Made by a program: the position numbers and the translations under genes | Part shown: one piece after another, positions 10,116 to 24,896 of the stretch | Position numbering within the stretch: position 1 is the first letter of the stretch | Layout of the letters: every line of letters starts with the position of its first letter | The notes under the pieces: generated by a model | Told to the model about the DNA's origin: nothing | Databases searched by the model: none | The model's input: the letters and a program-made list of their open reading frames with translations, nothing else | Origin: Candidatus Woesearchaeota archaeon | GTDB taxonomy: Archaea; Nanobdellota; Nanobdellia; Woesearchaeales; JAGLXL01 | Assembly (NCBI GenBank): GCA_030640025.1 | Contig: DAOWKC010000002.1 | Span: forward strand, 68,029-132,028 | Length of the DNA: 64,000 nt | Reading direction: 5' to 3'

Positions 10116-11072
10116 ATGCCAACCAAGAGATCACCAAGAAAAGGAACATTGCAGTTTTGGCCTAGAAGAAAGGCTAAAAAGGAATTAGCTCGAGTTAGAT
10201 ATTGGAATAGAACAAAAGAAGCTAAGCCCTTGGGATTTATTGGCTATAAAGCAGGCATGCTTCATATTCTGGCGATTGACAACCGGCCGAAATCTTTGTC
10301 AAAAGATGAAGAGATTAGTTTGCCGGTAACTGTGATTGAATGTCCGGCCATGAAGGTGGCAGGCATTAATTTCTATCAACATGATTACAAGGGTTTGATG
10401 CTGCGTTCTACTGTTTTATCACAAGATCTTGACAAGGAATTGGCAAGAAAAATAATTCTACCAAAAAAAATCAATAAAAAAATTGAAGATGTTAAGGAAT
10501 TTGACGAAGTTAGATTATTAGTTTATACTCAACCAAAATTAATTGCAGCTTTAGGCAAGAAACCAAAAATTGGAGAGATTGCTTTAGGCGGCACAAAAGA
10601 AGAACAATTGAAATTTGCCCAGGAAAAATTAGGCAAAGAAATTATGGTGGAAGAAGTTTTCAAAGAAGGTAATTTAGTTGATATTCATGCGGTGACAACT
10701 GGAAAAGGTTTCCAGGGTCCGGTCAAGAGGCATGGGGTTGAATTAAGAAGTCATAAATCAGAAAAAGCCAGAAGAGGCAATATCAGAGGAGCTTGGACAG
10801 GAACTCCGATGTGGACTGTGCCTCATTCAGGCAAGATGGGTTATCATTTGAGAACGGAATTAAACAAATGGTTATTGAAAATCGGGAAAAAAGGAGAAGA
10901 AGTCACTCCCAAAAGCGGATTTAATCGATATGGATTAGTTAAGAATGATTATGTTTTATTGAAGGGATCTATTCCAGGACCAAGGAAAAGAGTTGTAACT
11001 TTAACCGAGGCAATCAGGCCAAATGCCAAAGTGCCAAAAGAAGCACCGCAGATTAGGTATATACTAAAATGA
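10116..11072 (+). CDS. rpl3: ribosomal protein uL3
   Basis: Archaeal L3 signature (FQGPVKRHG, W..TP). First gene of the conserved cluster. Confidence 0.9.
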   Translation: MPTKRSPRKGTLQFWPRRKAKKELARVRYWNRTKEAKPLGFIGYKAGMLHILAIDNRPKSLSKDEEISLPVTVIECPAMKVAGINFYQHDYKGLMLRSTVLSQDLDKELARKIILPKKINKKIEDVKEFDEVRLLVYTQPKLIAALGKKPKIGEIALGGTKEEQLKFAQEKLGKEIMVEEVFKEGNLVDIHAVTTGKGFQGPVKRHGVELRSHKSEKARRGNIRGAWTGTPMWTVPHSGKMGYHLRTELNKWLLKIGKKGEEVTPKSGFNRYGLVKNDYVLLKGSIPGPRKRVVTLTEAIRPNAKVPKEAPQIRYILK

Positions 11073-11875
11073 AGCTAGCAATTTTTGATTTGGAAAAGAA
11101 GAAGAAAAGTGAAAAGGAACTGCCTAATCAGTTTAACGAGGAAATCAGACCTGATTTAATCAAAAGAGCGGTTTTAGCTCTGCAAAGTTCTTCAAGACAG
11201 AGGTATGGTGTTGATCCAAGAGCTGGGAAAAAGGTTTCAGCTGATTTGAGCAAGAGGAGGAGAAAATACAGGGGCATGTATGGCCATGGTATTTCAAGAA
11301 TACCAAGAAAGATTCTGTCAAGACGCGGAACACAATTTAATTGGGAGGGTGCTTTTGCTCCGGGAACACGGGGCGGCAGACAAGCTCACCCGCCAAAGGC
11401 TGAAAAGAACTGGGAAAAGAAAATCAACAAAAAAGAAAGGAGAAAAGCAATTAGAAGTGCAATGGCAGCTACTTTAGTTAATGATTTAGTTAAGGAAAGA
11501 GGACATTTGATTCCTGAGGATTATCCATTTGTGATTGATAATAAAATTGAAAGTTTAGATAAAACAAAAGTTGTCAAGGATTTGTTAAAGAAATTAGGTT
11601 TTGATAATGAACTGGAGAGAGGCAGCAAGAAAAAAGTCAGAGCTGGCAAAGGCAAGATGAGAGGGAGAAAATACAAGAAAAAGACCAGTTTGTTGATTGT
11701 AGTAGGAAATGATTGTAAATTATTGAAAACAGGAAAAAATATTCCTGGGATTGATATTGTTAAAGTCAAGGAACTTAATGCTGAAATGTTGGCTCCGGGA
11801 GCAGCAATTGGCAGAGCCACTTTATGGAGCGAAAATTCAATTGAAAAACTCAACAAGGAGAAGTTATTTGCTTAA
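11069..11875 (+). CDS. rpl4: ribosomal protein uL4
   Basis: L4/L1e family. Start overlaps the L3 stop by 4 nt; position in cluster. Confidence 0.85.
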
Positions 11876-11876
11876 A

Positions 11877-12134
11877 ATGGATCCACACAAAATTGTCAAA
11901 TTTCCATTGTCAACAGAAAAAAGTATCAGACTGATGGAAAGGGAAAACAAATTGATCTTTGTGGTAGATATGAAAGCAAAAAAAAGTGAAATCAAGAAAG
12001 CAATTGAGGATTTGTTTAAAGTAAAGGTAACTAAAGTTAATACTTTGCTGGCTGGCAATGAAAAAAGAGCTTATGTTAAATTAAGCATGGAGAATCCAGC
12101 TATTGATATTGCAACTGAATTAGGTCTGATGTGA
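11877..12134 (+). CDS. rpl23: ribosomal protein uL23
   Basis: [31 protein letters not shown]... L23 family. Start at the internal Met right after the L4 stop. Confidence 0.85.
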
Positions 12135-12160
12135 TGAAAATGAAACATTTTCAGCATGCC

Positions 12161-12181
12161 AAAAATCCGGAGGATTTTTTA
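12161..12181 (+). terminator. hairpin + T-tract in L23-L2 spacer
   Basis: AAAAATCC-GGA-GGATTTTT 8-bp stem followed by T. Preceded by palindrome GAAAATG-AAA-CATTTTC (12135-12152). Confidence 0.3.
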
Positions 12182-12188
12182 GCATAAG

Positions 12189-12896
12189 ATGGGAAAAAGA
12201 TTACTTCAACAAAGACGGGGAAGAGGAACAAGTAATTTCAGGTCTCCTGGTTTTAAGTACAAAGGGAGAGCCAAACATAGACAATTGAGCAAAGAAGTGA
12301 GAGGAAAGATTGTTGATTTAATTGACTGCCCAGGACACAGCGCGCCTCTAGCTAAAATTACTTATGAAGATGGCCAAGCTTGCTTGACAATTGCACCAGA
12401 AGGAATTGCAGTAGGTGATACTGTAACAGTGGGTGGCGAAGCCAAGCCAGGTAATTTGTTTACTCTGAAAGATATTCCTGAAGGAGCTTTGGTTTTTAAT
12501 ATTGAATTGCAGCCAGGTGACGGCGGCAAGTTTGTCAGAAGCAGCGGAACTTTTGCCAAGGTTGTGGCCAAAACACCAAGTGGAGTAACAGTAAAACTGC
12601 CTTCAAAAAAAGAAAAAACTTTTTTCCCAGAATGCCGGGCTTGTATTGGAGTAGTAGCGGGTGGCGGAAGACCTGAAAAGTTCTTCTTAAAAGCAGGAAC
12701 AAAATATTATCACATGAAAGCTAAGAATAAGATTTATCCTCATGTTCAGGGTATTAGTATGAATGCAGTGGCTCACCCATTCGGCAGTAAGAGCTCACAT
12801 ATCAAAGGTCGACCAACTCAGAGTTCACGGCATGACCCACCTGGAAGAAAGGTTGGTAAGATTGCTCCTAGAAGAACTGGTCGGAGGAAGAGATAA
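12189..12896 (+). CDS. rpl2: ribosomal protein uL2
   Basis: L2 signature (GGGRPEKFFLKAGTKYYHMKAKNK, H-G-G-R...). Confidence 0.9.
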   Translation: MGKRLLQQRRGRGTSNFRSPGFKYKGRAKHRQLSKEVRGKIVDLIDCPGHSAPLAKITYEDGQACLTIAPEGIAVGDTVTVGGEAKPGNLFTLKDIPEGALVFNIELQPGDGGKFVRSSGTFAKVVAKTPSGVTVKLPSKKEKTFFPECRACIGVVAGGGRPEKFFLKAGTKYYHMKAKNKIYPHVQGISMNAVAHPFGSKSSHIKGRPTQSSRHDPPGRKVGKIAPRRTGRRKR

Positions 12897-13279
12897 TGGC
12901 AAAAAAAGAACTCAAATGGCGAGGTAAAAACTTAGAAGAAGCAAAAAAAATGGATTTAAAAGATTTTACACTTTTACTTCCAGCTAGAAAAAAGAGAGCT
13001 TTGAAAAGAGGATTTACTGAAAAGGAAAAGAAATTATTGAAGAAGATTGAAAGAGGGGACAAGACAATCAAAACTCACTGTCGAAGCATGATCATCATTC
13101 CTCAAATGTTAGGCAAAGTATTTTTAGTTTATACTGGCAAGGAATTTGCCCAAGTCAGAGTAGAATTAGAAATGTTAGGACATAGATTAGGAGAATTTGC
13201 CTTAACTAGGAAAAGCGTAGCACACAATGCTCCGGGTGTAGGAGCAACAAGAAGCAGTGCTGCTGTCTCAGTCAAATAA
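12896..13279 (+). CDS. rps19: ribosomal protein uS19
   Basis: S19 signature (THCRSMIIIPQMLGKVFLVYTGKEF). Confidence 0.9.
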   Translation: MAKKELKWRGKNLEEAKKMDLKDFTLLLPARKKRALKRGFTEKEKKLLKKIERGDKTIKTHCRSMIIIPQMLGKVFLVYTGKEFAQVRVELEMLGHRLGEFALTRKSVAHNAPGVGATRSSAAVSVK

Positions 13280-13282
13280 ATA

Positions 13283-14035
13283 ATGAAAAATAAATACTCA
13301 ACACAAGTGGAAGGAGAAACAGCCAAGGTTTTGGGTAAAGACCTGACTATTTCCAAAAAACATAGTGTTGAGATTTGCCGTTTTATTAGAAAGAAAAAGT
13401 TGAGTAAGGCTAAGGAATTATTGAACAAAGTATTGAAAAAAGAAATTGCAGTGCCTTATCGAAAACATACTTGGAATTTAGCCCATAAAAAAAGCACTCA
13501 AGGGCCAGGCAGATATCCAATAAAAGCAGTAAAGGCAATATTGGGATTACTTGAATCTGTAGAAGCCAATGCCCAGTTCAAAGGCATGAATACTGGCAAT
13601 TTAGTTATTGAACATATTAATGCCCATCAAGCGTCAAGACCATGGCATTTTGGCCGTCAGAGAAGAAGAAAAATGAAGAGGGCCCATGTGGAGATTATTG
13701 TCAAGGAAGGAGTAAAGACACGTGGAGGCAAAGCTACTGAGCGAGACAAGCTCGCTGGTACCACTGAACGTGGCTCTGGTGCCCCTAAAGGGGAAAAGGC
13801 TGAAGAAAAGCTAAAGAAAGAGGAACCAAAGGTTTCAGAGGCACGAGAAGGCAAGCCTTCGGTGAACAAGGAAACTTCAAAGAAGTTTCCGGTTTCCCAA
13901 AAATCGCAAAGCGATTTTTCAGGATCTCAGAAAACTAAAGTTTCTGAGACTCCTAAAAAAGAAGTTAAGGAAGATATCGGAACTAACGTTCCGGAACCTC
14001 CTAAAGAAGGAGTTAAGAAGGTTGATAAAAAATGA
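13283..14035 (+). CDS. rpl22: ribosomal protein uL22 with ~95-aa K/E/P-rich C-terminal extension
   Basis: L22 core is followed by a low-complexity tail containing the shared SGAPKGEKA and VPEPPKEGVK modules. Confidence 0.85.
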   Translation: MKNKYSTQVEGETAKVLGKDLTISKKHSVEICRFIRKKKLSKAKELLNKVLKKEIAVPYRKHTWNLAHKKSTQGPGRYPIKAVKAILGLLESVEANAQFKGMNTGNLVIEHINAHQASRPWHFGRQRRRKMKRAHVEIIVKEGVKTRGGKATERDKLAGTTERGSGAPKGEKAEEKLKKEEPKVSEAREGKPSVNKETSKKFPVSQKSQSDFSGSQKTKVSETPKKEVKEDIGTNVPEPPKEGVKKVDKK

Positions 14036-14943
14036 TGGAAAGAAATTTCGTGGCTGAAAAATTAAAGGAATTCCAGATAGAAGAATTTGTTTCAAAGAAA
14101 CTGAACAGAGTCGGACATTCACATACAGTGATGAAGAAGACTCCTTTGGGTGAAAAAATTATAATTCATGCCAGCCGGCCTGGTTTAGTTGTTGGCAGAC
14201 AAGGCGGCAATATCAAAGAGTTGACCAAACAATTGAAAAAAGAGTTTAATTTAGAAAATCCTCAAATTGAAATCCAAGAAGTTGAAAATATTTTCTTGGA
14301 TCCTGAAATTGTAGCTGAAAGAATTGCCAATTCCCTAGAAAGATTTGGCACAACCCGTTTCAAGGGTGTGGGCCACAAAATGATGGAGAAGGTTTTAGAA
14401 GCAGGGGCTTTAGGTATAGAAATTATCATGTCAGGAAAGATTCCTGGGGCACGAGCAAGATCATGGAGATTTTATCAAGGTTATTTGAAAAAGTGCGGCG
14501 ACATGGCAATGATGGGAGTCAAAAAATCCTGCAAAACTGCTTTGTTGAAAACTGGTATTATTGGAATCAGAGTCAGGATTATGCCACCTGAGTTAAAAGA
14601 GCAAGAAGAAATTAGATTAAAGAAAGAAGAAGAGATCATTGAAGAAATCAAAGAAGTACAGAGAGGCGAAGCCTCTGGTACCCCTAAAGGGGAGCCGAAA
14701 AAGGCCAAGAAGAAGAGAACTAAAAAAAAGAAAGAGACTAAGAAAGTAGACAAGAAAGAAGTTAATGTAGAAAAAGTTGTTGAAGAGGAGAAAGAAGAAG
14801 CGGCTGAAGAAAAACAAGAAGATATCAAAACTGAGGTACTTGAAAATGAAACATTTTCGGTACCTCCTAAGGAGGTTCCGGAACCTTCTGATGAAGGAGT
14901 AAAAGAAGTGCCAAAGGCTGAAGAAACTAAGGAAAAACAATGA
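14032..14943 (+). CDS. rps3: ribosomal protein uS3 (KH domain) with ~90-aa K/E-rich C-terminal extension
   Basis: KH domain and S3 C-domain. Tail contains the shared QRGEASGTPKGE and VPEPSDEGVK modules. Confidence 0.9.
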   Translation: MMERNFVAEKLKEFQIEEFVSKKLNRVGHSHTVMKKTPLGEKIIIHASRPGLVVGRQGGNIKELTKQLKKEFNLENPQIEIQEVENIFLDPEIVAERIANSLERFGTTRFKGVGHKMMEKVLEAGALGIEIIMSGKIPGARARSWRFYQGYLKKCGDMAMMGVKKSCKTALLKTGIIGIRVRIMPPELKEQEEIRLKKEEEIIEEIKEVQRGEASGTPKGEPKKAKKKRTKKKKETKKVDKKEVNVEKVVEEEKEEAAEEKQEDIKTEVLENETFSVPPKEVPEPSDEGVKEVPKAEETKEKQ

Positions 14944-15161
14944 AAAGAAAAGAAATCAAGTCGGTGCCAAAAGGCGAATTAGAAAACAAATTAATAGAGT
15001 TAAAAAGGGAATTAATGAAACAAAATGCTCAAATCAGGATCGGCACCACGCCAACCAATCCAGGAAAAGTCAAACAAATGAAAAAATTAATTGCTAAAAT
15101 TCATACTCAACTCAAAAAAACAGAAGCTAAACCAGCTTCGAGTAAGAATGTGGAGGTATAA
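14940..15161 (+). CDS. rpl29: ribosomal protein uL29
   Basis: Short coiled-coil protein (LENKLIELKRELMKQNAQ) at the L29 position. Confidence 0.8.
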   Translation: MKRKEIKSVPKGELENKLIELKRELMKQNAQIRIGTTPTNPGKVKQMKKLIAKIHTQLKKTEAKPASSKNVEV

Positions 15162-15469
15162 TGTCAGAAGTTTGCCAAGATTGCGGTTTACCAAAAGATC
15201 TATGTGTTTGTGAAACCATTGCCAAAGAACAGCAAAAAATCGAAGTGACTACCGAGAAAAGAAAATTCGGAAAGATCTACACCATCATTAAGGTGCAGGA
15301 TACAGGTAGCCTTGATATGGGGGATTTAACCAAAAAACTAAAGGCGAAGTTTGCGTGCGGCGGAACATACAAAGAAGGACAAATTGAACTTCAAGGAAAT
15401 CATAAAAACAATGCCAAGCGAGCGTTGCTGGGAATGGGCTTTTCAGAAGAAACCATAGAAATTCAATGA
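15161..15469 (+). CDS. translation initiation factor SUI1 (aSUI1/eIF1 family)
   Basis: SUI1 fold motifs (KRKFGKIYTIIKVQD...FACGGTYKEGQIELQGNH). Conserved position after L29 in archaea. Confidence 0.8.
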   Translation: MSEVCQDCGLPKDLCVCETIAKEQQKIEVTTEKRKFGKIYTIIKVQDTGSLDMGDLTKKLKAKFACGGTYKEGQIELQGNHKNNAKRALLGMGFSEETIEIQ

Positions 15470-15492
15470 ATTTCAGGGTTCCAAAATCCTCA

Positions 15493-15515
15493 AAAATCAC
15501 AAAAGTGATTTTTGG
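15493..15515 (+). terminator. hairpin + T-tract between SUI1 and Rpp29 genes
   Basis: AAAATCAC-AAAA-GTGATTTT perfect 8-bp stem followed by TTT. Confidence 0.3.
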
Positions 15516-15592
15516 GACACTAGAAATTTGTCAAACAAATTTTTAAGTGTTTCAAAGAAATTTTGAGAACCATAGAAATCAAGTAAAACCAA

Positions 15593-15832
15593 ATGAAAAC
15601 CAACACCTACCCTGAAGAAATAATTGGTAAAACCATTGAAGTGGTGGAATCAAAAAATTCCAGTGATGTTGGAATCAGGGGTAAAATCATTGATGAAACC
15701 AAAAAAACAATTTTGGTGAAAACCAAAAAAGGCGAAAAACGGTTGTTGAAGAGCAACATTACATTCACAATCAATCATCAAAACATCAAAGGTAAAAATT
15801 TACTCAAAAGGTCTGAAGAAAGAATAAAATGA
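15593..15832 (+). CDS. rnp1: RNase P protein subunit Rpp29 (Rnp1/Pop4)
   Basis: EEIIGKTIEVVESKNSSDVGIRGKIIDETKKTILVKT matches the Rpp29 Sm-like core. Conserved position before S17. Confidence 0.75.
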   Translation: MKTNTYPEEIIGKTIEVVESKNSSDVGIRGKIIDETKKTILVKTKKGEKRLLKSNITFTINHQNIKGKNLLKRSEERIK

Positions 15833-16164
15833 AAGAAAAGAAAGTTGGATTGGGTTTAGAAAGCCCAAAGGAAAAGTGCACGGACAAAAAATGTCCATTC
15901 CATGGAGAAATCAATATCAAACCAGAGACTTTTGTAGGCAAAGTCATTAAGATGGATGTCAGCAGAACAGCAACGATTGAATGGATCAGGAATGTTGAAG
16001 TGAGAAAGTATGAAAGAAAGGCAAAGAAAGTGAGTAAATTAAGAGTGCACAATCCACCCTGCTTGAAAGTTAAAGTAGGTGATGAAGTAATGGTAGCCAA
16101 GACCAGACCAATGAGCAAAACTAAAAATTTTGTTATAGTCAAAATCATAAAAAAGGCTGAATAA
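15829..16164 (+). CDS. rps17: ribosomal protein uS17
   Basis: CTDKKCPFHGEINIK... archaeal S17 N-terminus. Confidence 0.85.
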   Translation: MKEKKVGLGLESPKEKCTDKKCPFHGEINIKPETFVGKVIKMDVSRTATIEWIRNVEVRKYERKAKKVSKLRVHNPPCLKVKVGDEVMVAKTRPMSKTKNFVIVKIIKKAE

Positions 16165-16166
16165 AA

Positions 16167-16568
16167 ATGAAAGCAATTAAAGCAAAAGTAACCAGGGGAT
16201 TGCCTGTGAATTCAAGGGTAGCAACTTGTGATAACTCTGGGGCTAAAATATTGAAGATTTTTTCAGTCAAAAGACACAAAACAGTCAAAGGCAGACTGCA
16301 AGCAGCTGGAGTAGGTGATTTAGTCATGGCTTCAGTTAAGAAGGGGAAGCCAGAAATGAAAAAACAGGTTGTTTTGGCAGTAATTGTCAGGCAGAAAAAA
16401 GAATATTTGAGACCAAACGGCATGAGGATTAAATTTGAAGATAATGCGGCAGTAGTTGTTAAGGATGACGCGGGCAATCCAAAAGGAACTTTGCTGAAAG
16501 GTCCGATTGCCAAAGAAGCCTGCGAAAGATGGCCAGGGATTGCGAAATTGGCCAGTATTGTGGTGTAA
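16167..16568 (+). CDS. rpl14: ribosomal protein uL14
   Basis: L14 signature (CDNSGAKILKIFSVK...). Confidence 0.9.
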   Translation: MKAIKAKVTRGLPVNSRVATCDNSGAKILKIFSVKRHKTVKGRLQAAGVGDLVMASVKKGKPEMKKQVVLAVIVRQKKEYLRPNGMRIKFEDNAAVVVKDDAGNPKGTLLKGPIAKEACERWPGIAKLASIVV

Positions 16569-16570
16569 AG

Positions 16571-16954
16571 ATGAGAAAGTTTTCAAAAGCATGGAAAGGA
16601 AGCAAGAAACCAAGGAAGCAGCACAAATACAGAGCGAAAGCTCCTTTGCATTTGAGGAAGAATTTGGTTTCAATTCATTTGAGCAAAGATTTAATCAAAA
16701 AATACGGCAAAAGAAATGTCCCGGTCAGAAAAGGGGATAAGGTTAAGATTTTGAGAGGGCAATTCAGAAAAAAAGAAGGCAAGATTGAAAGAATTGACAG
16801 GAAATCGTACAAGGTTTATATTACTGGAATTGAACTGGTCAAGAAGGAAGGGAGCAAGGTCTTGAAGTCACTTGACCCTTCAAATTTAACCATTGTGGAT
16901 TTAGACCTAGAAGACAGAAAAAGAAAAGCTAAATTGGAGACAAAGAAAAAATGA
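16571..16954 (+). CDS. rpl24: ribosomal protein uL24 (KOW)
   Basis: KOW motif (VRKGDKVKILRGQFRKKEGKI). Start at the internal Met after the L14 stop. Confidence 0.85.
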   Translation: MRKFSKAWKGSKKPRKQHKYRAKAPLHLRKNLVSIHLSKDLIKKYGKRNVPVRKGDKVKILRGQFRKKEGKIERIDRKSYKVYITGIELVKKEGSKVLKSLDPSNLTIVDLDLEDRKRKAKLETKKK

Positions 16955-17628
16955 AAGGTTATCTAAAAAGAAACTACACACCGGCAACATGGCTGATACG
17001 CAGAAAGGAGAAGAAATTCATAATCAAACCAAATCCAGGAGCTCATGCTATGGAATTTGGCCTGCCACTTAATATTGTGTTAAAGGATTTAGGTTACGGT
17101 AAAACAAGCAGAGATGTGAGGAATATTTTGCATAAGAAAGATGTTTTAGTTGACGGCAAGAAAAGAAAAGATCCAAAATATATTATCGGGATAATGGATG
17201 TTTTGAGTTTTCCTGAAGTTAAGAAAAATTATAGAATAATTTTAGATAAAAAGGGAAGATTAATTGTCAAAGAGATTAGTGAAGAAGAAAGCAAGGTTAA
17301 AATCAGTAAAGTAGTGGGCAAGACAGTTTTAGGCAAAGGAAAAATACAATTGAATTTGCATGACGGCAAGAATATTTTGACTGAGACTAAAGCCAAAGTA
17401 GGAGATTCCTTGCTATTGGAACTGCCAAGCTTAAAGATCAAGGAAGTTTTGGAATTGAAAAAGGGAGCCCAGATTTATTTATTGAAAGGAAATCGCGCAG
17501 GCAGCCAAGGTGTGCTACAGGAAATTGAAGGAAAGAAGATTATCTTTGAAAAAGACAAAGAAAAAATTGAAACTTCGAAAGCTTATGCTTTAGTAATTGG
17601 CGGCAAGATCAAGATTGAAAATGACTGA
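16951..17628 (+). CDS. rps4e: ribosomal protein eS4
   Basis: S4e family (KGYLKRNYTPATWLIRRKEKKFIIKPNPGAHA). Confidence 0.9.
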   Translation: MKGYLKRNYTPATWLIRRKEKKFIIKPNPGAHAMEFGLPLNIVLKDLGYGKTSRDVRNILHKKDVLVDGKKRKDPKYIIGIMDVLSFPEVKKNYRIILDKKGRLIVKEISEEESKVKISKVVGKTVLGKGKIQLNLHDGKNILTETKAKVGDSLLLELPSLKIKEVLELKKGAQIYLLKGNRAGSQGVLQEIEGKKIIFEKDKEKIETSKAYALVIGGKIKIEND

Positions 17629-18154
17629 AAACTCAATGAGAAAAATTCGGATCGAGAAAGTGACCCTGAATGTTGGGGTTGGCAAAGATGAAGATAAATT
17701 GAAGAAGGGGAAAAAATTATTGAAAATGATCACTGGAGTTGAAGCAGTCAATACAACTACTCAAAAAAGAATTCCTGGATGGGGATTGAGACCGGGATTG
17801 TCAATTGGCTGTAAAATAACCTTGAGGCACAAAAAAGCAATTGAAATTTTGAAAAATTTACTGGAAGCCAAAGACAATATGTTAAGTTTAAATAATTTTG
17901 ATGACCAGGGCAATCTAGCTTTTGGTATTGCAGAATATATTGATATTCCAGGCCTTAAATACGACCCAGAAATCAAGATTATGGGTTTGGAAGTGGCAGT
18001 AACTTTGGAAAGACCGGGATTTAGAATCAAAAGAAGAAGAATCCAAAAGAAAAAGATTCCCAAAACCCATGTTATGGCAAAAGAAGAAAGTGTTGAATTT
18101 ATGAAAAAAGAATTTAATCTGAAAATTGAGGAGGAAGAAGATGACAACGAGTGA
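17621..18154 (+). CDS. rpl5: ribosomal protein uL5
   Basis: L5 family ([12 protein letters not shown]...). Confidence 0.85.
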
Positions 18155-18371
18155 TTATAAAAAAGCATTTACGCAATTGAAAGCCAAACCAGTGAAGTTA
18201 GCTAAATTTTTGAAGCATAATAAGCCAAAAGAAAGAAGTTGCGGAAAATCCTTGAGAAAATGCAAGCGATGCGGCAGACACGGCGGCCATATCAGAAAAT
18301 ATGGAGTGGGCTTGTGCAGACAATGCTTTAGAGAAATTGGTTTAGATTTGGGGTTTAAAAAATTCAGCTGA
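18126..18371 (+). CDS. rps14: ribosomal protein uS14 (zinc-binding type)
   Basis: [32 protein letters not shown] zinc-ribbon S14 signature. The true start may be the Met at 18141. Confidence 0.85.
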
Positions 18372-18430
18372 GGTTAAAAAAATATGAAAATCAAAAATTT
18401 TCAATTGTTAAAAACTAGGAGGTTTTCAAC

Positions 18431-18823
18431 ATGACTTTAAATGATCCATTAGCAAACATATTATCAAAAATCGTGAACGCAGAAAAAATCGGAAGAAAGG
18501 TCTGTTTAGCCAAACCAGCCTCAAAAGAAATCCAAAAGATTTTGACGATTTTAAATGCTCATGGTTATCTAGGCAAATTCAAAGTAATTGAAGACGGCAA
18601 AGGCGGTGTTTTAGAGATTAATTTACTGGGCAATGTCAATAAATGCGGCGTCATCAAGCCTCGCTTTAGTACAAAGTATGTTGATTTAGAAAAATGGGAA
18701 AAAAGATATTTGCCAGCCAAGGATTTTGGTATTATTATTATTTCAACTCCTAAGGGTTATTTAACCCATTTTGAAGCAAGAGAAAAGAAAACTGGAGGAA
18801 AATTAATCGCTTACTGTTATTAA
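18431..18823 (+). CDS. rps8: ribosomal protein uS8
   Basis: S8 family (DPLANILSKIVNAEKIGRK...). Confidence 0.9.
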   Translation: MTLNDPLANILSKIVNAEKIGRKVCLAKPASKEIQKILTILNAHGYLGKFKVIEDGKGGVLEINLLGNVNKCGVIKPRFSTKYVDLEKWEKRYLPAKDFGIIIISTPKGYLTHFEAREKKTGGKLIAYCY

Positions 18824-18824
18824 C

Positions 18825-19367
18825 ATGAAATCAGACATTAAAGAAGGGCTGGCTTGGCCAGAAGGTGTGGAAGTTAAGTATGAAAAAGGTATTTTAATAG
18901 TTAAAGGACCAAAAGGAGAAGTAAAGAGGAGGCTGTTAGATCCTCGAATTAAAATTGAAGTTAAGGATAAGGTCTTGCTTGAGAGTCTGAAGGCAACCAA
19001 AAGGGAAAAAAGAATGTTGTATACTTTTCATTCACATATCAGAAATATGTTCAAGGGAGTAACAGAAGGCCATGTTTATGAATTAAAGATTTGCTCAGGC
19101 CACTTTCCAATGAATGTTTCAGTAGCTGGCAATGAATTTTTGATTAAGAATTTTTTAGGGGAGAACAGCCCAAGGAAAATAACAATCAAAGAAAGCGTCA
19201 AAGTGGCGGTGGAAGGAGACAAGGTCAAGGTAGAAGGAATTGATAAGGAATTAACTGCCCAGACAGCTGCCAGCATTGAACTGTTGACAGTGGTGAGGGG
19301 CCGAGACAGAAGAATTTTTCAAGACGGAATTTATATTACCAATAAGGACGGCAAGGAATTAAAATGA
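18825..19367 (+). CDS. rpl6: ribosomal protein uL6
   Basis: L6 two-domain pattern at the conserved position. Confidence 0.85.
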   Translation: MKSDIKEGLAWPEGVEVKYEKGILIVKGPKGEVKRRLLDPRIKIEVKDKVLLESLKATKREKRMLYTFHSHIRNMFKGVTEGHVYELKICSGHFPMNVSVAGNEFLIKNFLGENSPRKITIKESVKVAVEGDKVKVEGIDKELTAQTAASIELLTVVRGRDRRIFQDGIYITNKDGKELK

Positions 19368-19948
19368 GCAAAGAAAATTTATTGAAAGTGCGGGCGATGA
19401 AAAAGAAGAAACAGCCAGTTTTTAGAAGACAAGAGATTACTAAAAAGAAAAAAACAAGGAATAATCCAAGCTGGAGAAGGCCAAAGGGCATCCAATCAAA
19501 ATTAAGATTAAATAAAAAAGGGCATGAAGCCAAACCAAGAAAAGGCTGGGGCTCACCTAAAGAAGTAAGGGGTTTGCATAAATCTGGATTAAATTTTGTT
19601 TTAGTCTGCAGTTTTAATGATTTAAATAATCTGAAAAAAGAAGAAGATGGTGTAGTGATCGGCAGTAAAGTCGGCAAAAGAAAAAAATTAGATTTGATTA
19701 AAAAAGCTGAAGAAAAAGGTTTGCAGATTTTGAATATTAGAGATACAAAAGCTTTTGTTGAGAAAGTCAAGAAAGAAAGAGAAGAATCAAAAAAGAGGAG
19801 TGAAGAAAGAAAGACTAAAGCAGAGAAAAGCAAGAAAAAAGCCAAGCCAAAGGAAGCAAAGAAAGAAACAAAAGAAGAAGTGAATGAAGAAGACAAGAAG
19901 AAAGAAGATAAAAAGGAAAAAGATAAAATTTTGACTAAGAAGAGCTAA
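19364..19948 (+). CDS. rpl32e: ribosomal protein eL32 with ~60-aa K/E-rich C-terminal extension
   Basis: L32e core (KQPVFRRQEITKKKKTRNNPSWRRPKGIQSKLR) plus a lysine/glutamate tail. Confidence 0.85.
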   Translation: MSKENLLKVRAMKKKKQPVFRRQEITKKKKTRNNPSWRRPKGIQSKLRLNKKGHEAKPRKGWGSPKEVRGLHKSGLNFVLVCSFNDLNNLKKEEDGVVIGSKVGKRKKLDLIKKAEEKGLQILNIRDTKAFVEKVKKEREESKKRSEERKTKAEKSKKKAKPKEAKKETKEEVNEEDKKKEDKKEKDKILTKKS

Positions 19949-19949
19949 A

Positions 19950-20411
19950 ATGGAATTAAAAAATCAAAAAAGGTTAGCTGCGGAAATTTTGAAATGTTCA
20001 ACCAAGAAGATTCACTTTGATCCTGAAAATCTGGGTGATATCCAAGAAGCAATCACCAGAGCAGATATTAAATCCTTGATTAATCAGGGAATTATTTCAG
20101 TTAAGAAAAAAGGTTATAATTCAAGAGTACGGGCAAGAAAAATTTTGAGACAAAAGAGAAAGGGCAGCCGGAGAGGAGCAGGAAGCAGAAAAGGAAGCAA
20201 GTATGCAAGATTAGGGAAGAAAGAAGCCTGGATGTCCAAAATCAGAGCTCAAAGAGAACTTTTGAAAAAATTAAGAGACCGTGAGATGATTGAGAAAAAA
20301 ACCTATCGAGATTTATATTTGAAAGCCAAAGGCGGCTTTTTCAGAAATAAAAGACACATTAAGTTGTATATGGAAGAACATAAACTATTGAAAGATGAGA
20401 AAAAAGCCTAA
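19950..20411 (+). CDS. rpl19e: ribosomal protein eL19
   Basis: L19e family (KRLAAEILKCSTKKIHFDPE...). Confidence 0.85.
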   Translation: MELKNQKRLAAEILKCSTKKIHFDPENLGDIQEAITRADIKSLINQGIISVKKKGYNSRVRARKILRQKRKGSRRGAGSRKGSKYARLGKKEAWMSKIRAQRELLKKLRDREMIEKKTYRDLYLKAKGGFFRNKRHIKLYMEEHKLLKDEKKA

Positions 20412-20883
20412 AGTAGTAGCATTCAGAAGAGTAAGACAAGGAAAAACTGATTACCGGAAACGGTTGAAGTTTTTATCAGCTGGCAAACCAAGGTTAGTTA
20501 TTAGAGTAACTTTGAGTAAGATTATTGGCCAGATTATTGGCTATAATCCAGAAGGCGACAAGGTTTTAGCAGGATTGAGCTCCCAAGCTTTGGAGAAATT
20601 AGGTTGGCAAGGAAGCAAGAAAAATCTGCCAGCAGCTTATTTGACTGGATATTTATTGGCTAAAGAAGCAGTGAAAAAAGGTGTTAAAGAAGTTATTTTA
20701 GATATTGGTTTTAAGCCGTCGATTAAGGGCAATAAAATTTATGCTTGTGTAGCTGGAGCAATTGAAGGTGGTTTAGGAATTAATTGTGATAAGGAAATGC
20801 TGCCAGCAGAAGACAGGATTAAAGGCAAACACATTAAACCGGAAATTGAAAAAATGTTTGAAGAGGTTAAAAAGAAGATCTAA
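20395..20883 (+). CDS. rpl18: ribosomal protein uL18
   Basis: L18/L5e family (RRVRQGKTDYRKRLKFL...). Confidence 0.85.
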   Translation: MRKKPKVVAFRRVRQGKTDYRKRLKFLSAGKPRLVIRVTLSKIIGQIIGYNPEGDKVLAGLSSQALEKLGWQGSKKNLPAAYLTGYLLAKEAVKKGVKEVILDIGFKPSIKGNKIYACVAGAIEGGLGINCDKEMLPAEDRIKGKHIKPEIEKMFEEVKKKI

Positions 20884-20884
20884 A

Positions 20885-21709
20885 ATGGAAAAGGAAAAAC
20901 TACCTGACAAGGAAGAGAGCAAAAGAGAATCAGACCAGGAAGCAGAAGAGTTAGAAGAAAAAGAAATTGTTGAACCAGAAAAAAAGGTTGAGGTAGAAAA
21001 AACACCAACTGAAGTTTTGAAAGAGGGCTGGAAGCCAAAAACTGAACTGGGCAAGAAGGTTTTATCAGGTGGAATTACTGATATTGATGAGATTTTAGAC
21101 CGGGGTAAATTAATCTTAGAACCTGAAATTGTAGAGGTCTTGCTGCCTGAATTGGAAAATGATTTGTTATTGGTTGGTCAGTCGAGAGGTAAGTTTGGCG
21201 GTGGACAGCGGAGAATTTTCAAACAAACACAGAAAAAAACCCCAGAAGGAAATAAGATTTCATTTACAACTTATGCTATTGTAGGCAATAATAATGGTTA
21301 TATTGGCTTGGGCTGGGGCAAGAGCAATGAAACAGTTCCAGCTCGTGATAAAGCGAATAGGGAAGCAAAATTAAGTATTAAAAAAATCAGAAGAGGCTGC
21401 GGAAGCTGGTTGTGCGGATGTAAGAATCCACATTCAATTCCATTTAAGGTTAAGGGTAAAAGTGGATCAGTCATTGTTGAGTTGATACCAGCACCAAAGG
21501 GCAAGGGTTTGATTATTGAAGAAGAATGCGGCAAGATGCTAAAATTAGCAGGCATTAATGATGTTTTTTGTAAAACAACCGGGAAAACCAAAACAAAGAT
21601 TAATTTAGTCAGAGCTTGTTTTAATGCTTTGAAAAATTTGATGGAAGTTAAAGCTAATCCTAATTTTTCCCCGAATGTGGGATTGATGGAAGGGAAGGTA
21701 AAACAATGA
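20885..21709 (+). CDS. rps5: ribosomal protein uS5 with K/E-rich N-terminal extension
   Basis: S5 dsRBD and C-domain (GKFGGGQRRIFKQTQ...). Start at the Met after the L18 stop. Confidence 0.85.
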   Translation: MEKEKLPDKEESKRESDQEAEELEEKEIVEPEKKVEVEKTPTEVLKEGWKPKTELGKKVLSGGITDIDEILDRGKLILEPEIVEVLLPELENDLLLVGQSRGKFGGGQRRIFKQTQKKTPEGNKISFTTYAIVGNNNGYIGLGWGKSNETVPARDKANREAKLSIKKIRRGCGSWLCGCKNPHSIPFKVKGKSGSVIVELIPAPKGKGLIIEEECGKMLKLAGINDVFCKTTGKTKTKINLVRACFNALKNLMEVKANPNFSPNVGLMEGKVKQ

Positions 21710-22053
21710 CTAAAACAGCTGTTATTTTAATCAGGAGCAAGATTGGATTCACTCAAGGAGTTAAAGATACCTTGAAGATGTTGGGCTTTAGAAGAAAAAA
21801 TAATTGTGTGATTTTAGAGGCAAAACCTGAATTAAAAGGTATGATTATTAAAGTAAAAGATTTAGTAACTTGGGGTGAAGTAAGCGAAGAAACTTTGAAA
21901 GAAATGGAAAAAAGGAAGAAAGGTAAAGTGTATTTTTTGCATCCTCCTCGGAAAGGTTTTGGAAGAAAGGGAATCAAAGTACCGTTTAAAGTAGGCGGTG
22001 GATTAGGTTATCGGGGAGATAAGATTAATGATTTGATCAAGAGGATGTTATAA
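21706..22053 (+). CDS. rpl30: ribosomal protein uL30
   Basis: L30 ferredoxin-like fold (AVILIRSKIGFTQGVKDTLKMLGFRRKNNCVILE). Confidence 0.85.
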   Translation: MTKTAVILIRSKIGFTQGVKDTLKMLGFRRKNNCVILEAKPELKGMIIKVKDLVTWGEVSEETLKEMEKRKKGKVYFLHPPRKGFGRKGIKVPFKVGGGLGYRGDKINDLIKRML

Positions 22054-22604
22054 TGGTTGTTGGTAAAAGAAATAAGCGGAGCAGGTATCGCGGAAGCCAC
22101 ACTCATGGCGGCGGAGCCAAGAAGAAGAGGAGAGGAGCTGGCAATCGAGGAGGCCGAGGCAGAGGTGGTTTTGGTAAGAGAGGCCAGCAGAGGATGCCGA
22201 CTGCTCAAGCGCGCAAGGAGAAGTTAGGCAAAAGGGGATTTATTCATCATGGTGTTAAAAAGGATTTGAAAGGTATTAATTTAGGTGATTTTAGTAGATT
22301 GTTGGAGAAAGGTTTGGTTAAAAATGAAGGAGTTGTTGATTTAAATAAATTAGGTTATAAATTACTAAGCAGCGGAGATATCAAAGTTAAAATTCAAGTT
22401 AAAGGCCAGGTTTCCAAAAAGGCTGAAGAAAAAATTATTAAAGCTGGCGGCGAAGTTTTGAAAGAAGCACAGAGAGGCAAAGCCTCTGGTGCCCCTGAAG
22501 GGGAGAAGAAAGTTTCAGAGACACGTGAAGGCGAGCCTCTGGCACCACGTAAAGTGGCTTCAGTGCCTCGCAAGGAGGAGCCTAAAGGTGAAAAAGAACA
22601 ATGA
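22053..22604 (+). CDS. rpl15: ribosomal protein uL15 with ~45-aa C-terminal extension
   Basis: L15 G/R-rich N-terminus. Tail contains the shared QRGKASGAPEGE and KVSETREGEP modules. Confidence 0.85.
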   Translation: MVVGKRNKRSRYRGSHTHGGGAKKKRRGAGNRGGRGRGGFGKRGQQRMPTAQARKEKLGKRGFIHHGVKKDLKGINLGDFSRLLEKGLVKNEGVVDLNKLGYKLLSSGDIKVKIQVKGQVSKKAEEKIIKAGGEVLKEAQRGKASGAPEGEKKVSETREGEPLAPRKVASVPRKEEPKGEKEQ

Positions 22605-23995
22605 GTTTCCTAGATGATTTATTAGCAAATCTGCCCGAAGTCAAGGGGCCAATGCAAAAAAGGCTTTCTTTTAAAGAGAAATTAAAATGGACTTTAGTTG
22701 TTCTCTTGTTGTTTTTTATTATGGGTTTGGTGCCTTTGTTTGGTTTAGGACAAAATGCTCTGCAGCAATTTGAATTTTTATCAATTATCTTAGGTGCTTC
22801 ATTTGGGAGTATTTTATCTTTAGGTATTGGGCCAATTGTAACTGCATCCATTGTTTTGCAATTGTTAAGCGGCTCCGGCATTATGAAGCTGGACCTGACT
22901 TCCCCAGACGGAAGAAAAAGATTTCAAGGACTGCAGAAGGTTTTGTCGATATTTTTTATTGTTTTTGAAGCAGGGATTTATGTTTTTATGGGTGGTTTGG
23001 CGCCAGCAGCGGAATTGGCAGGAACAAGTTTGTTTTTTCAAATAGAGTTGATATTAGTTTTTCAACTTATTTTAGGCGGCATCTTGATTATGTTTATGGA
23101 TGAAGTTGTTTCAAAATGGGGTTTTGGTTCTGGACTTTCTTTGTTTATTGCAGCAGGTGTTTCACAGCAGATTTTCTTAAGAGCGTTGAATCCCTTGCCA
23201 AGTCCATTAAATCCAGAAATTGCTTCAGGAGCGATTCCAGCATTATTTCAATCCTTGACTAGCGGGGATCCAGTAACAGCTGGTCTGCAGATAGCAGCTT
23301 TGGTAAGCACGATTGTAGTTTTCTTGATTGTAGTTTACACGCAGTCAATGAAGGTTGAGATTCCCTTGTCCTTTGGTCGAGTGCGAGGCCATGGGATTAG
23401 ATGGCCATTGAATTTTTTCTATACTTCAAATATTCCAGTAATTTTAGTGGCAGCTTTGTTAGCTAATGTTCAGTTATGGGCGCGATTAGTTGAGAGATGG
23501 ATTGGCCATGCAACTTTTTTAGGCGGCTTTAGCGGCAATACAGCAGTAACCGGGTTAGCAGCCTGGATTAATTCACCAGATATTGTAGGGACTTTAATTA
23601 AAGGCGGTTTAAGGTTGGCAGATATTGGCCAAGCAGGGATTTATGTTTTGATAATGGTAGCTGGTTCAATTGTATTTTCAATATTTTGGATGCAGACAGC
23701 AAATATGGATGCGCGTTCACAAGCAAATCAAATCATGTCATCTGGTCTGCAGATTCCTGGTTTCAGGCGTGATCCTCGGGTTTTAGAAAGTATTTTGAAA
23801 AGATATATCTGGCCATTAACAGTAATGGGTGGAGCAGCAGTTGGTTTAGTGGCAGCTTTAGCTGATTTAACTGGGGCTTTGTCGCGAGGAACTGGTATTT
23901 TGCTGGCAGTCATGATTGTTTACAAGTTATATGAAGAGATTGCCAAGCAGCACATGATGGACATGCATCCAATGATGCGTAAATTCATGGAATGA
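22601..23995 (+). CDS. secY: preprotein translocase SecY
   Basis: 10-TM SecY with conserved segments. Conserved position after L15. Confidence 0.9.
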   Translation: MSFLDDLLANLPEVKGPMQKRLSFKEKLKWTLVVLLLFFIMGLVPLFGLGQNALQQFEFLSIILGASFGSILSLGIGPIVTASIVLQLLSGSGIMKLDLTSPDGRKRFQGLQKVLSIFFIVFEAGIYVFMGGLAPAAELAGTSLFFQIELILVFQLILGGILIMFMDEVVSKWGFGSGLSLFIAAGVSQQIFLRALNPLPSPLNPEIASGAIPALFQSLTSGDPVTAGLQIAALVSTIVVFLIVVYTQSMKVEIPLSFGRVRGHGIRWPLNFFYTSNIPVILVAALLANVQLWARLVERWIGHATFLGGFSGNTAVTGLAAWINSPDIVGTLIKGGLRLADIGQAGIYVLIMVAGSIVFSIFWMQTANMDARSQANQIMSSGLQIPGFRRDPRVLESILKRYIWPLTVMGGAAVGLVAALADLTGALSRGTGILLAVMIVYKLYEEIAKQHMMDMHPMMRKFME

Positions 23996-24133
23996 ATTTA
24001 CGTAGAAAATCTCTAAAAAGATTTTCGTGTGTAAATTTATGGGGTAATCTTTATAAATGAGGGTTAAACTGAGTTAAAATATGAAAATTTCCTTGAAATT
24101 TTCAAGGTTTAAAAACCAGAGGTCTTCAAACAA

Positions 24134-24895
24134 ATGGGATTTTTCGGCAGTTTATTGGATCCGGTATTGAACCCCTTGCTGGGTTTAGGGCCAATCTGGG
24201 CTCTTTTGGTTATTTCAATAATTATTTCTCTGTTAGTTACTTTGGTCTATAAGTTTGCAACTAACCAAGAAAAGATGAAGGAATTAAAGTTAGAGATGAA
24301 AGCAAGCCAGAAGCAAATGAAAGAACTGAAGAATGAGCCAGAGAAAGTGATGGTGATGCAGAAAGAATCCATGAAGAAAAATATGGAATACATGAAGCAT
24401 AGTTTTAAAGCAACTTTGATTACTTTATTGCCGATTTTAATTGTTTTTGGCTGGATGCAGGCGCATTTGGCTTTTATGCCGATTATGCCAGGTGATGAAT
24501 TTACTATTACCACAAGCTTTATTGAAGATTTAGAAGGTGAGGTTGAGATTGTCTTGCCAGAACAAATTGAAAATTTAGGTGAAGATAAACAAGAAGTTAA
24601 AGGTGATGTGGTATGGGGGTTAAAGGCTTTGGAAGAGGGCAGTTATTTTATTGATTTTAAGAATAAAAGAAAGGTGGTTTCAAAAGAAGTTATAGTGAGT
24701 GAGAGTTTGGAATATGCTGAACAGATTGAAGATAAATGGAAAAAAACATTTGGAGTGATTAAAATTGATTATCAGAAAATGACTCCGTTAGGTGAGTTTG
24801 ATATCTTGGGCTGGCAGCCAGGATGGTTAGCTTTATATATTATCTTTTCACTGGTCTTTAGCATGTCTTTGCGAAAGATATTGAGGTTATACTAA
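24134..24895 (+). CDS. DUF106-family membrane protein (archaeal YidC/Oxa1/EMC3-like insertase)
   Basis: Three-TM topology with a coiled-coil cytoplasmic loop (KMKELKLEMKASQKQMKEL). Position after secY, as in other archaea. Confidence 0.6.
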   Translation: MGFFGSLLDPVLNPLLGLGPIWALLVISIIISLLVTLVYKFATNQEKMKELKLEMKASQKQMKELKNEPEKVMVMQKESMKKNMEYMKHSFKATLITLLPILIVFGWMQAHLAFMPIMPGDEFTITTSFIEDLEGEVEIVLPEQIENLGEDKQEVKGDVVWGLKALEEGSYFIDFKNKRKVVSKEVIVSESLEYAEQIEDKWKKTFGVIKIDYQKMTPLGEFDILGWQPGWLALYIIFSLVFSMSLRKILRLY

Positions 24896-24896
24896 A

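Follow-up and report, generated by a model that had tools for sequence, protein, structure and literature searches.

The C-terminal tails of three ribosomal proteins of a Woesearchaeota (DPANN) archaeon, uL22, uS3 and uL15 (hereafter L22, S3 and L15), contain short palindromic DNA modules that are nearly identical between genes, are inserted in frame and are missing from the corresponding genes of close relatives. They were found in a 64,000-nucleotide stretch of a metagenome-assembled genome (assembly GCA_030640025.1, contig DAOWKC010000002.1, positions 68,029 to 132,028; GC 36.6%), here called the window, whose own numbering is used below and which includes an archaeal ribosomal-protein operon at 10116-25590 that runs from L3 through L15 and SecY to L34e and L14e. 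The explanation that is moderately favored here is a lineage-specific burst of events of the template-switch or gene-conversion type, in which these small palindromes arose and were copied, with only in-frame, stop-free insertions at permissive places surviving selection.

All three genes are on the plus strand. L22 (13283-14035; 250 amino acids in the list of open reading frames) has its Pfam domain, PF00237, at residues 18-141 and a tail of 109 amino acids behind this conserved domain (13706-14035), S3 (14032-14943; 303 amino acids) has KH and S3_C domains at residues 16-183 (Pfam) and a tail of ~117 residues (14590-14943), and L15 (22053-22604; 183 amino acids), whose Pfam domain ends at residue 135, has a tail of 48 amino acids (22458-22604). 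Because these domains end before every copy, the modules lie entirely within the C-terminal tails. Tails rich in lysine and glutamate (K/E-rich) are general in Woesearchaeota on L22 (6-73 amino acids) and S3 (51 to ~140 amino acids), with very variable lengths, and an L15 tail is confined to the immediate clade of the window (loci L008-L034, proteins P0004-P0241).

Three modules are shared among the tails. Local alignment shows that module 1 is identical at 41/45 positions (91%) between S3 (14650-14694) and L15 (22461-22505), with a blastn-short E of 6e-12 within the window. A 35-nt degenerate pattern of this module has 2 matches (14659-14693 and 22470-22504) versus 0.00 expected from 100 dinucleotide shuffles, and its 21-nt core, CTCTGGTRCCCCTRAAGGGGA, has 3 (13774-13794 in L22, 14673-14693 in S3 and 22484-22504 in L15) versus 0 expected from dinucleotide shuffles. 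Module 2 is common to L22 (13832-13858) and L15 (22512-22538), with 24/27 positions identical, and module 3 to L22 (13988-14013) and S3 (14875-14900), with 23/26. An earlier note on this DNA had described the 45-nt block, the recurrence of its core in L22 and the second and third modules, all of which were recovered with coordinates shifted by 1-2 nt, and the hairpins that it had called perfect are so: AGAGGC-RAA-GCCTCT (hairpin A) at 14662-14676 and 22473-22487, CCCC-TRAA-GGGG (hairpin B) at 13782-13793, 14681-14692 and 22492-22503, and GGTTCC/GGAACC.

It could be argued that this similarity is chance arising from low-complexity K/E coding, or an assembly artefact, since K/E-rich tails give many weak repeats and metagenome assemblies can be chimeric. 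However, no matches are expected from shuffled sequence, and the modules are GC-rich, not K/E-rich (inserted DNA has a GC content of 0.41-0.59 versus 0.37 for operon genes, with 0.59 in module 1 and 0.55 in the L15 tail). In addition, an independent Logan assembly of run SRR13892600 (contig L037) is identical to the window over 13739-22558, and partial module sets exist in two independent samples (L035 and L036, discussed below), so chance or artefact is considered excluded. Low-complexity coding and local tandem duplication had also been named by the earlier note as ways in which its proposal could fail. K/E-rich repeat families in the window are only 60-73% identical, so the modules are not low-complexity noise, and the copies are in three genes 0.9-8.7 kb apart, so local tandem duplication does not account for them. 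The Logan contig starts in the L22 tail (13739) and ends in the L15 tail (22558); the modules apparently break de Bruijn-graph assemblies.

The relatives used to date these sequences came from an S3 homologue search and contig look-up. One of them, L004 (GCA_019322575.1), has 92.5% nucleotide identity to the window over 3.6 kb and an S3 core that is 99% identical, and L005, L006 and L007 have 81% nucleotide identity over 14.7 kb. A comparison of orthologs, which the earlier note had proposed, revealed that the module-bearing stretches are missing in L22, S3 and L15 of these close relatives. The window L22 has 250 residues versus 174 and 171 in these close relatives (163-203 among relatives), S3 has 303 versus 267 and 277, and L15 has 183 versus 156 in relatives. 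The extra residues (76-79 in L22, 26-36 in S3 and 27 in L15) coincide exactly with the stretches that carry modules, and the L15 tail of 48 amino acids compares with 21 in the nearest relative and 3-7 in others. Against L005, the operon of the window shows about 14 insertions that are 13 nt or longer, and zero deletions; against L004, the window shows six insertions in coding sequence and one, of 117 nt, in a spacer.

A chain of perfect hairpins runs through the L22 tail, where every feature is on the plus strand. Its first part is a 96-nt in-frame insertion (13717-13812) with no counterpart in L004 or L005, which holds the 21-nt module-1 core and the hairpins AGCGAG-ACAAG-CTCGCT (13740-13756), CCAC-TGAAC-GTGG and CCCC-TAAA-GGGG (hairpin B). 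This block is followed by the L22 copy of module 2 (13829-13860; GTTTCAGAGGCACGAGAAGGCAAGCCT...), with hairpin GAAGGC-AA-GCCTTC at 13847-13860, and by three consecutive perfect 9-bp hairpins within the open reading frame (13870-13949), namely GGAAACTTC-AAA-GAAGTTTCC (13870-13890), AAAAATCGC-AAA-GCGATTTTT (13899-13919) and TCTCAGAAA-ACTAAAG-TTTCTGAGA (13925-13949). The L22 copy of module 3 (13970-14013) comprises hairpin CGGAAC-TAAC-GTTCCG (13978-13993), the palindrome GTTCCGGAAC and CCTCC-TAAAGAA-GGAG(T). In all, 254 nt of this tail hold six perfect hairpins with stems of 6 bp or more, versus 0.38 expected from codon shuffles, and the tail contains three of the only ~5 hairpins of at least 9 bp found in the ~59 kb of coding DNA in the window.

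Further copies are in the S3 and L15 tails, also on the plus strand. The S3 copy of module 1 (14650-14694), which is not present in S3 of L004, L005, L006 or L008, consists of AGAGGC-GAA-GCCTCT, GGTACC and CCCC-TAAA-GGGG, and encodes KEVQRGEASGTPKGE. A distal S3 insertion together with the module 3 copy (14821-14900) contains GAAAATG-AAA-CATTTTC (14842-14858) and ACCTCC-TAA-GGAGGT (14862-14876); a 14-nt perfect palindrome, AGGTTCCGGAACCT (14873-14886), arises at the insertion junction, and 14841-14858 is an exact 18-nt copy of a hairpin in the L23-L2 spacer (12135-12152). In L15, the module 1 copy (22461-22505) has the hairpins AGAGGC-AAA-GCCTCT and CCCC-TGAA-GGGG, and the tail insertion that contains module 2 (22508-22581) has the hairpins CCAC-GTAAA-GTGG and CCTC-GCAAG-GAGG and lies between imperfect 13-nt repeats, CTGAAGGGGAGAA and CTAAAGGTGAAAA, a weaker match (10/13).

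Several observations indicate that the modules are similar as DNA and not as convergent peptide sequence. The four differences between the S3 and L15 copies of module 1 (14657, 14668, 14680 and 14686) comprise 4 nonsynonymous and 0 synonymous changes, and all are outside the stems, in the leader, the two loops and the GGTRCC spacer. Module 2 is related to module 1 (P = 0.0005 versus shuffles), and the shared GCCTCTGG encodes Ala-Ser-Gly in module 1 and Pro-Leu or Pro-Ser in module 2, since the module 2 loop is one base shorter and the same nucleotides are therefore read in another frame. The codon adaptation index of inserted DNA (0.51-0.57) is also below that of 28 operon genes (0.62-0.80) and of other K/E tails (0.70-0.79). 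The reading frame is nevertheless kept: in the comparison with L004, the length of every coding indel (7/7) is divisible by three (96, 99, 33, 24, 21 and 69 nt, plus 54 nt in the L004 gene for RNase P p29), versus 1/5 of the intergenic ones, and there are 0 stop codons in the reading frame and 1-16 in the other two. The tails are thus evidently translated through the modules, and the peptides would therefore be by-products.

These data also bear on a possible function of the encoded peptide, a short motif (xQRGxASG[AT]PxGE and others) that might serve, for example, as a docking site for a partner. The same peptide in the same reading frame of three ribosomal-protein tails, and the similar AQKSKISGTPE in L004 p29, could be taken to suggest this. 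Yet every module 1 difference changes the protein, module 2 uses the same nucleotides in another frame, the modules are poorly codon-adapted, and the motif is absent from all relatives and, outside this clade, from a search of 5.8 billion proteins, which makes a selected peptide very improbable.

That search, made with concatenated tail peptides, returned only this clade, and the sole other carriers were two L22 proteins, P0122 (L035, from ERR11809036) and P0123 (L036, from JGI 3300076656). Locus L035 has equivalents of hairpins h4-h6 of L22 and is without h7, h8 and module 1, and L036 has module 3 only; the modules are therefore separate indels that form a mosaic among sister strains, and each is a separate recent in-frame gain or loss. 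The modules were in none of 27 further metagenome loci, and they were absent among the matches listed in homologue searches (120 for S3 and 120 for L22), save for these two L22 relatives with partial sets. The exact pattern of the module core had no match among viral contigs and one bacterial match, read as chance, among 185,579 species genomes, a set that evidently does not include the source genome.

L004 has insertions of its own that are not in the window, a 57-nt cassette between S19 and L22 and a 54-nt in-frame insertion with two hairpins in p29 (L004 2552-2605, corresponding to about 15784 in the window), which adds AQKSKISGTPETRSVSKR and lengthens RNase P p29 from 79 to 97 amino acids. 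Three candidate relationships were set aside. The L004 p29 insertion encodes a peptide similar to that of module 1, its nucleotide similarity (P 0.02-0.11) is only suggestive, and it was not counted as a family member. The L22 tail and the L15 core also match over 16 nt, AAAAGGCTGAAGAAAA, which was discounted as a sign of copying because this K-A-E-E-K coding string recurs in many loci. Finally, part of module 3, GAAGGAGTAAA, was ruled out as copied DNA, being ancestral in both genes (at the L22 core/tail junction and in the L005 S3 tail).

Comparable insertions exist at four gene junctions of the operon, all on the plus strand. The L23-L2 spacer, 54 nt long in the window and 0-1 nt in most relatives, has a 53-nt cassette (12132-12184) of two hairpins, TGAAAATG-AAA-CATTTTCA followed by AAAAATCC-GGA-GGATTTTT, the latter carrying GGAGG. 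Between SUI1 and RNase P p29 is a 117-nt multi-hairpin insertion (15451-15567) flanked by an exact 12-nt direct repeat, AACCATAGAAAT, with a 7-bp snap-back hairpin, GAAATTC-AAT-GAATTTC, that spans the SUI1 stop codon. The S14-S8 junction has a 49-nt cassette (18382-18430) with two hairpins and a Shine-Dalgarno (SD) sequence, and the region after SecY (23976-24122) has insertions of 52 nt (23979-24030) and 53 nt (24070-24122), with an 11-bp snap-back hairpin, CGTAAATTCAT-GGA-ATGAATTTACG (23978-24002), that spans the SecY stop codon. Spacers at these junctions are 54, 123, 59 and 138 nt in the window versus 0-11 nt in about 30 relatives, so the four junction insertions are derived. Intergenic DNA has 8.4 hairpins per kb versus 2.3 per kb in coding DNA, and the intergenic cassettes place GGAGG 8-14 nt before start codons. 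The lineage-specific nature of the insertions, the hairpin chain through the rest of the L22 tail and the cassettes at four junctions go beyond what the earlier note had described.

Other repeats were seen in and around these spacers. A conserved leader cassette, GTTTAAAAAC[C/T](A)GGAGGT[C/T]TTCAAAC(AA)ATG, lies immediately ahead of three unrelated start codons, in the orientation of each gene (24107-24135 on the plus strand, 27876-27904 on the minus strand and 18408-18429 on the plus strand) and, with a second unit (GATTTTTGGGACAC[T/A]AGAAAT) common to 15507-15527 and 27922-27942, makes up an intergenic repeat family of hairpin and SD units. The p29 gene also has overlapping palindromes, ACCAAAA-AAACAA-TTTTGGT and TTTTGGT-GAAA-ACCAAAA (15698-15728), in a conserved coding stretch (KKTILVKTKK) that relatives keep at the protein level, unlike the tail hairpins.

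Several insertions are bordered by direct repeats. For example, the repeat at SUI1-p29 (15451-15462 and 15568-15579) is identical at 12/12 positions (P 0.002), the duplicated 3' end of SecY (23976-23990 and 24028-24042) at 13/15 (P 0.007), and the S19-L22 insertion of L004 (432-447 and 491-506 in that locus) at 15/16 (P 0.0025); in the L22 tail, the 3' part of the module 3 copy (14003-14018) is a direct repeat of the core/tail junction (13703-13718) at 14/16 (P 0.0035). In the SecY and SUI1 cases, the ancestral end of the gene survives as the downstream copy, now non-coding, and the upstream copy runs straight into its reverse complement.

Such repeats could be the footprint of a non-autonomous mobile element, a mini-palindrome of the REP, MITE or Rickettsia palindromic element (RPE) kind moved by a transposase or tyrosine recombinase encoded elsewhere. 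Presence or absence at different sites in sister genomes, including L004 p29, would fit such an element, as would copies in unrelated contexts (the 18 nt common to the S3 tail and the L23-L2 spacer, and the unit at 15507-15527 and 27922-27942). However, the portion of the genome covered, ~78 kb of window plus flanks, to which all copy counts here refer, holds only 2-3 copies of any module and no transposase among its annotated genes. Furthermore, the modules differ from one another in sequence and length and lack terminal inverted repeats and a GTAG/CGTC tag, the flanking repeats are long and variable (12-16 nt) with no fixed target duplication, hairpin B of L15 is orthologous to native sequence of a relative (see below), and the pattern searches of viral contigs and species genomes gave only the bacterial match read as chance. 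A mobile element is thus a doubtful source of the modules.

The stems themselves have changed in a paired manner. The first two 9-bp hairpins of L22 are retained in L035 with pairs changed on both sides: h5 is GGAAAC(TTC)-AAA-(GAA)GTTTCC in the window and GGAGAC-AAA-GTCTCC in L035, with a symmetric 3+3-nt extension (TTC/GAA) in the window, and h6 has the arms AAAAATCGC and GCGATTTTT around AAA in the window and is AGAAATCC-CAAAA-GGATTTCT in L035. Across h5 and h6, three pairs are altered on both sides and zero on one side only. Likewise, hairpin B of L15 (CCCC-TGAA-GGGG) has an ortholog, CCTC-TGAA-GAGG, where the L005 L15 gene ends (16/19 identical, P = 0.0016), a paired change from CCTC/GAGG to CCCC/GGGG; the L005 hairpin lies 11 nt upstream of the SecY ATG and has GAGG in its 3' arm. 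Given this orthology, the L15 copy is native, and L15 probably donated the 45 nt found in S3 as well as the 21 nt found in L22, a direction from donor to recipients that we infer from the native hairpin. In line with the proposal of the earlier note, the modules act like a small in-frame structured repeat family passed among the tails by a process akin to gene conversion.

Paired changes are also a hallmark expected of RNA structure, so it is necessary to consider whether the hairpins are selected structures of the polycistronic mRNA, with roles in translational coupling, SD sequestration or processing and stability, that spread because they are useful. On this view, hairpins would lie just ahead of the next cistron (S3, L29 and SecY) and would hide SD-like purine runs (CCTC/GAGG and ACCTCC/GGAGGT). 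Many stems consist of anti-SD/SD-like sequence, as in the L005 hairpin before SecY, and stems stay intact through paired changes. Cassettes with GGAGG before starts recur in other Woesearchaeota, and most hairpin loops are rich in A when read on the sense strand, for plus- and minus-strand genes alike.

Folding of the tails, which the earlier note had suggested, showed that those of L22 and S3 are far more stable than shuffled sequences. Against dinucleotide shuffles, z-scores were -4.99 for L22, -3.85 for S3 and -1.80 for L15, and against codon shuffles they were -6.6, -3.9 and -1.3; tails of relatives (n=36) had fold z-scores from -2.1 to +1.8, so the hairpin excess is specific to the window genome. 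Sense and antisense strands fold about equally, however, and the stems are perfect Watson-Crick helices with nearly no G-U pairs, neither of which favors an RNA structure. A fixed consensus structure (covariance model) would be artificial because the stem register shifts between copies, with the stem center of L004 p29 1 nt off. A scan for bacterial-type promoters and terminators, uninformative here, flagged module-1 hairpin A on the antisense strand only, and a search of Rfam 15 over 9000-26000 on both strands, with E up to 1, gave no match at the modules and three sub-threshold hits, all elsewhere.

The distribution of the hairpins is a further difficulty for selection on RNA. Tail hairpins are missing from every relative, including one at 92.5% identity, apart from the partial L22 sets in L035 and L036, and this indicates no conserved function at those sites. 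Most L22 hairpins are 80-300 nt from the S3 start, and more than 10 sites gained hairpins at once in one lineage, which fits a mutational burst better than parallel adaptation. Selected mRNA structures are therefore considered an unlikely origin of the set, and the role in RNA processing or attenuation that the earlier note had envisaged is not established by hairpins that are absent in relatives and fold similarly on either strand; identity at the DNA level and the in-frame repeat family are the parts of that interpretation that stand. An RNA function of the modules is possible, the two readings are not exclusive, and intergenic SD cassettes may well have been co-opted.

The reading preferred here, a burst of template-switch or gene-conversion-type events, would proceed as follows. 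During replication or repair, a nascent strand would switch template, either by folding back to copy itself or the opposite strand, or by entering an ectopic site with which it shares a few bases of K/E-codon microhomology. Such a switch would add short inverted copies, that is, perfect hairpins, and often duplicate 12-16 nt of the target on both sides. At gene junctions the outcome would be hairpin spacers of 50-120 nt, often with a GGAGG ribosome-binding motif. Within genes, only in-frame, stop-free insertions in unconstrained disordered tails would persist, as in L22, S3 and L15 and, in a sister genome, a C-terminal part of p29. Module 1 was most likely born in the L15 tail, around the native hairpin just upstream of the SecY start, from which a 45-nt stretch would have been copied to S3 and 21 nt to L22. 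We infer template switching because reverse-complement copies, symmetric stem growth, multi-base paired changes and ectopic copies flanked by microhomology are all seen, and a single template-switch event is able to yield perfect stems and compensatory changes of several bases (PMC8794818).

Several points weigh against this proposal. No enzyme or replication context was identified in the ~78 kb covered, and flanking repeats are absent or non-significant at the L23-L2, S14-S8, second SecY, S3 distal and L004 p29 insertions. The paired changes are also expected from selection on an RNA stem, and they were counted (3 pairs) in just two or three sequences, with 14/500 shuffles reaching the observed score; the direction of change at single hairpins rests on few outgroups. 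The A-rich loops of the sense strand hint at a constraint on RNA or orientation. Finally, more distant Woesearchaeota (L020 and L013) have intergenic cassettes of the same design (a TGAAAAT...ATTTTCA hairpin, an A-rich/GGAGG hairpin, then ATG) at other junctions, so the intergenic cassettes may be functional.

The closest parallel to these modules is the GC clusters of yeast mitochondrial var1 (uS3m). The yeast var1 product is an S3 homologue whose polymorphism between strains comes from optional in-frame GC-rich palindromic clusters, and such clusters are also intergenic, mutate mainly in loops, undergo merging and shuffling, and have been connected with gene conversion (PMC8811140). Like them, the archaeal modules include short GC-rich palindromes in AT-rich DNA (GC 0.59 in module 1 versus 0.37 in the operon), are mostly intergenic and also in frame in S3, concentrate substitutions in loops and are optional between close genomes, as L004 has an S3 with a 99% identical core and no module. 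Unlike yeast clusters, they are on an archaeal chromosome, affect three ribosomal proteins, are heterogeneous (15-45 nt) with many AT-rich companion hairpins, and have flanking duplications of 12-16 nt. Yeast clusters also have characteristic terminal AG/TAG direct repeats, interpreted as target-site duplications; module flanks here are purine-rich (..AAG / ..GAG), which leaves AG at both ends uninformative, and the longer repeats of 12-16 nt flank other insertions.

Another parallel is provided by the RPEs (Ogata et al. 2000), which reportedly sit in frame in housekeeping genes, are translated, are accommodated at permissive sites on the protein surface and differ in occurrence among related genomes. 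They are said to be ~100-150 bp long, to form defined families with tens of copies and to be confined to Rickettsia. The modules resemble them as palindromic repeats in frame in protein-coding genes, and differ from them as units of 15-55 nt with 2-3 copies each in a DPANN archaeon. RPEs are mentioned in PMC1779305 and PMC1458961.

In terms of mechanism, template-switch mutations create and maintain hairpins (PMC8794818), including in coding sequence (PMC8604942). Similarities to their products include perfect stems that are the reverse complement of adjacent pre-existing sequence, with an ancestral 5' arm at SecY (CGTAAATTCAT/ATGAATTTACG) and SUI1 (GAAATTC/GAATTTC), symmetric stem growth and, in a small sample, clustered paired multi-base changes (the three pairs of h5/h6, and CCTC/GAGG to CCCC/GGGG), as well as inverted-repeat arms homogenised inside coding sequence (PMC8604942). 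In contrast to the scattered, single events described, there is a dense burst here of at least 14 insertions in 15 kb, with ectopic copying between genes 1-9 kb apart and target duplications of 12-16 nt.

Other families share fewer features with the modules. RAYT-mobilised REP, BIME and REPIN sequences are likewise 20-40-nt palindromes, often paired, transcribed as RNA hairpins, located between genes in operons and sometimes intragenic (PMC3733652). However, the modules lack the GTAG/CGTC tag (their leaders are GYACAG / RCACGW), show neither a high-copy family nor a RAYT in the region covered, belong to an archaeal host and, in the tails, are intragenic. Unlike MITEs, they form chains of internal hairpins without shared termini, and their 12-16-nt flanking repeats are absent at several sites. 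The recurrent lineage-specific invasions of sponge mitochondria by hairpin elements of similar structure and divergent composition (PMC2800124), and the perfect inverted repeats inside translated mitochondrial genes of Nematomorpha (PMC6649704), are also alike, but these are organelle genomes, and in Nematomorpha the repeats reach 284 bp and both arms encode conserved protein, whereas the arms here encode an unconstrained tail. PARCELs, too, are dyad-symmetric coding DNA that moves within and between genomes (PMC2996958), but the tail translations have no motif, array or context like their tandem 25-residue amphipathic motif of membrane or surface open reading frames. The module set lacks at least one defining feature of each of these families and is therefore not a member of any of them, and no report of such insertions in archaeal ribosomal-protein genes was found in the literature searched.

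These modules illustrate how palindrome-forming insertions, which sister genomes at 81-92% identity serve to date, can quickly lengthen the products of essential, highly conserved ribosomal-protein genes by tens of residues in a streamlined DPANN genome, and they provide an archaeal chromosomal counterpart to the GC-cluster polymorphism of yeast var1/uS3 and to the RPEs of Rickettsia. This suggests a general rule, in which hairpin DNA would find permissive landing sites where AT-rich reduced genomes combine with disordered ribosomal-protein tails. Together, the filled and empty sites, flanking duplications and stop-codon snap-back hairpins are a natural data set for template-switch models of hairpin birth and 'compensatory' evolution. 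There is also a practical aspect, because assemblies break at hairpin tails and spacers, which also inflate the lengths of ribosomal proteins and can distort alignments of phylogenomic markers.

A tentative extension of this proposal is that an active, undescribed process of 'duplicative hairpin insertion' operates in this Woesearchaeota lineage, either as a mutator-like template-switching state or as a new mini-element with 12-16-nt target duplications. If so, it would quickly build intercistronic hairpin/SD cassettes, rewrite the 3' ends of genes and extend essential proteins by peptide made from inverted copies of their own codons, so that both protein and regulatory sequence would arise de novo via palindrome formation in a reduced archaeal genome.

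Three features elsewhere in the window are also of interest. On the plus strand, 9303-9420 folds into a stem resembling that of a tRNA acceptor (GGCGGTAG... / ...CTACCGCC) together with a canonical T-arm (GGGGTTCGATTCCCC). No tRNA was reported by ARAGORN in the 64-kb window, yet the sequence is probably a tRNA gene that has an intron or is atypical in another way, a type common in DPANN archaea. A candidate replication origin is at 53560-54019, where 460 nt of very AT-rich intergenic DNA contain direct as well as inverted repeats, directly upstream of Cdc6/Orc1 (54012-55223), which is followed by the small and large subunits of PolD (55226-60310). Finally, a 961-amino-acid replication factor C / AAA+ open reading frame on the minus strand (39753-42638) carries an intein (Pfam Intein_splicing in the contig annotation).

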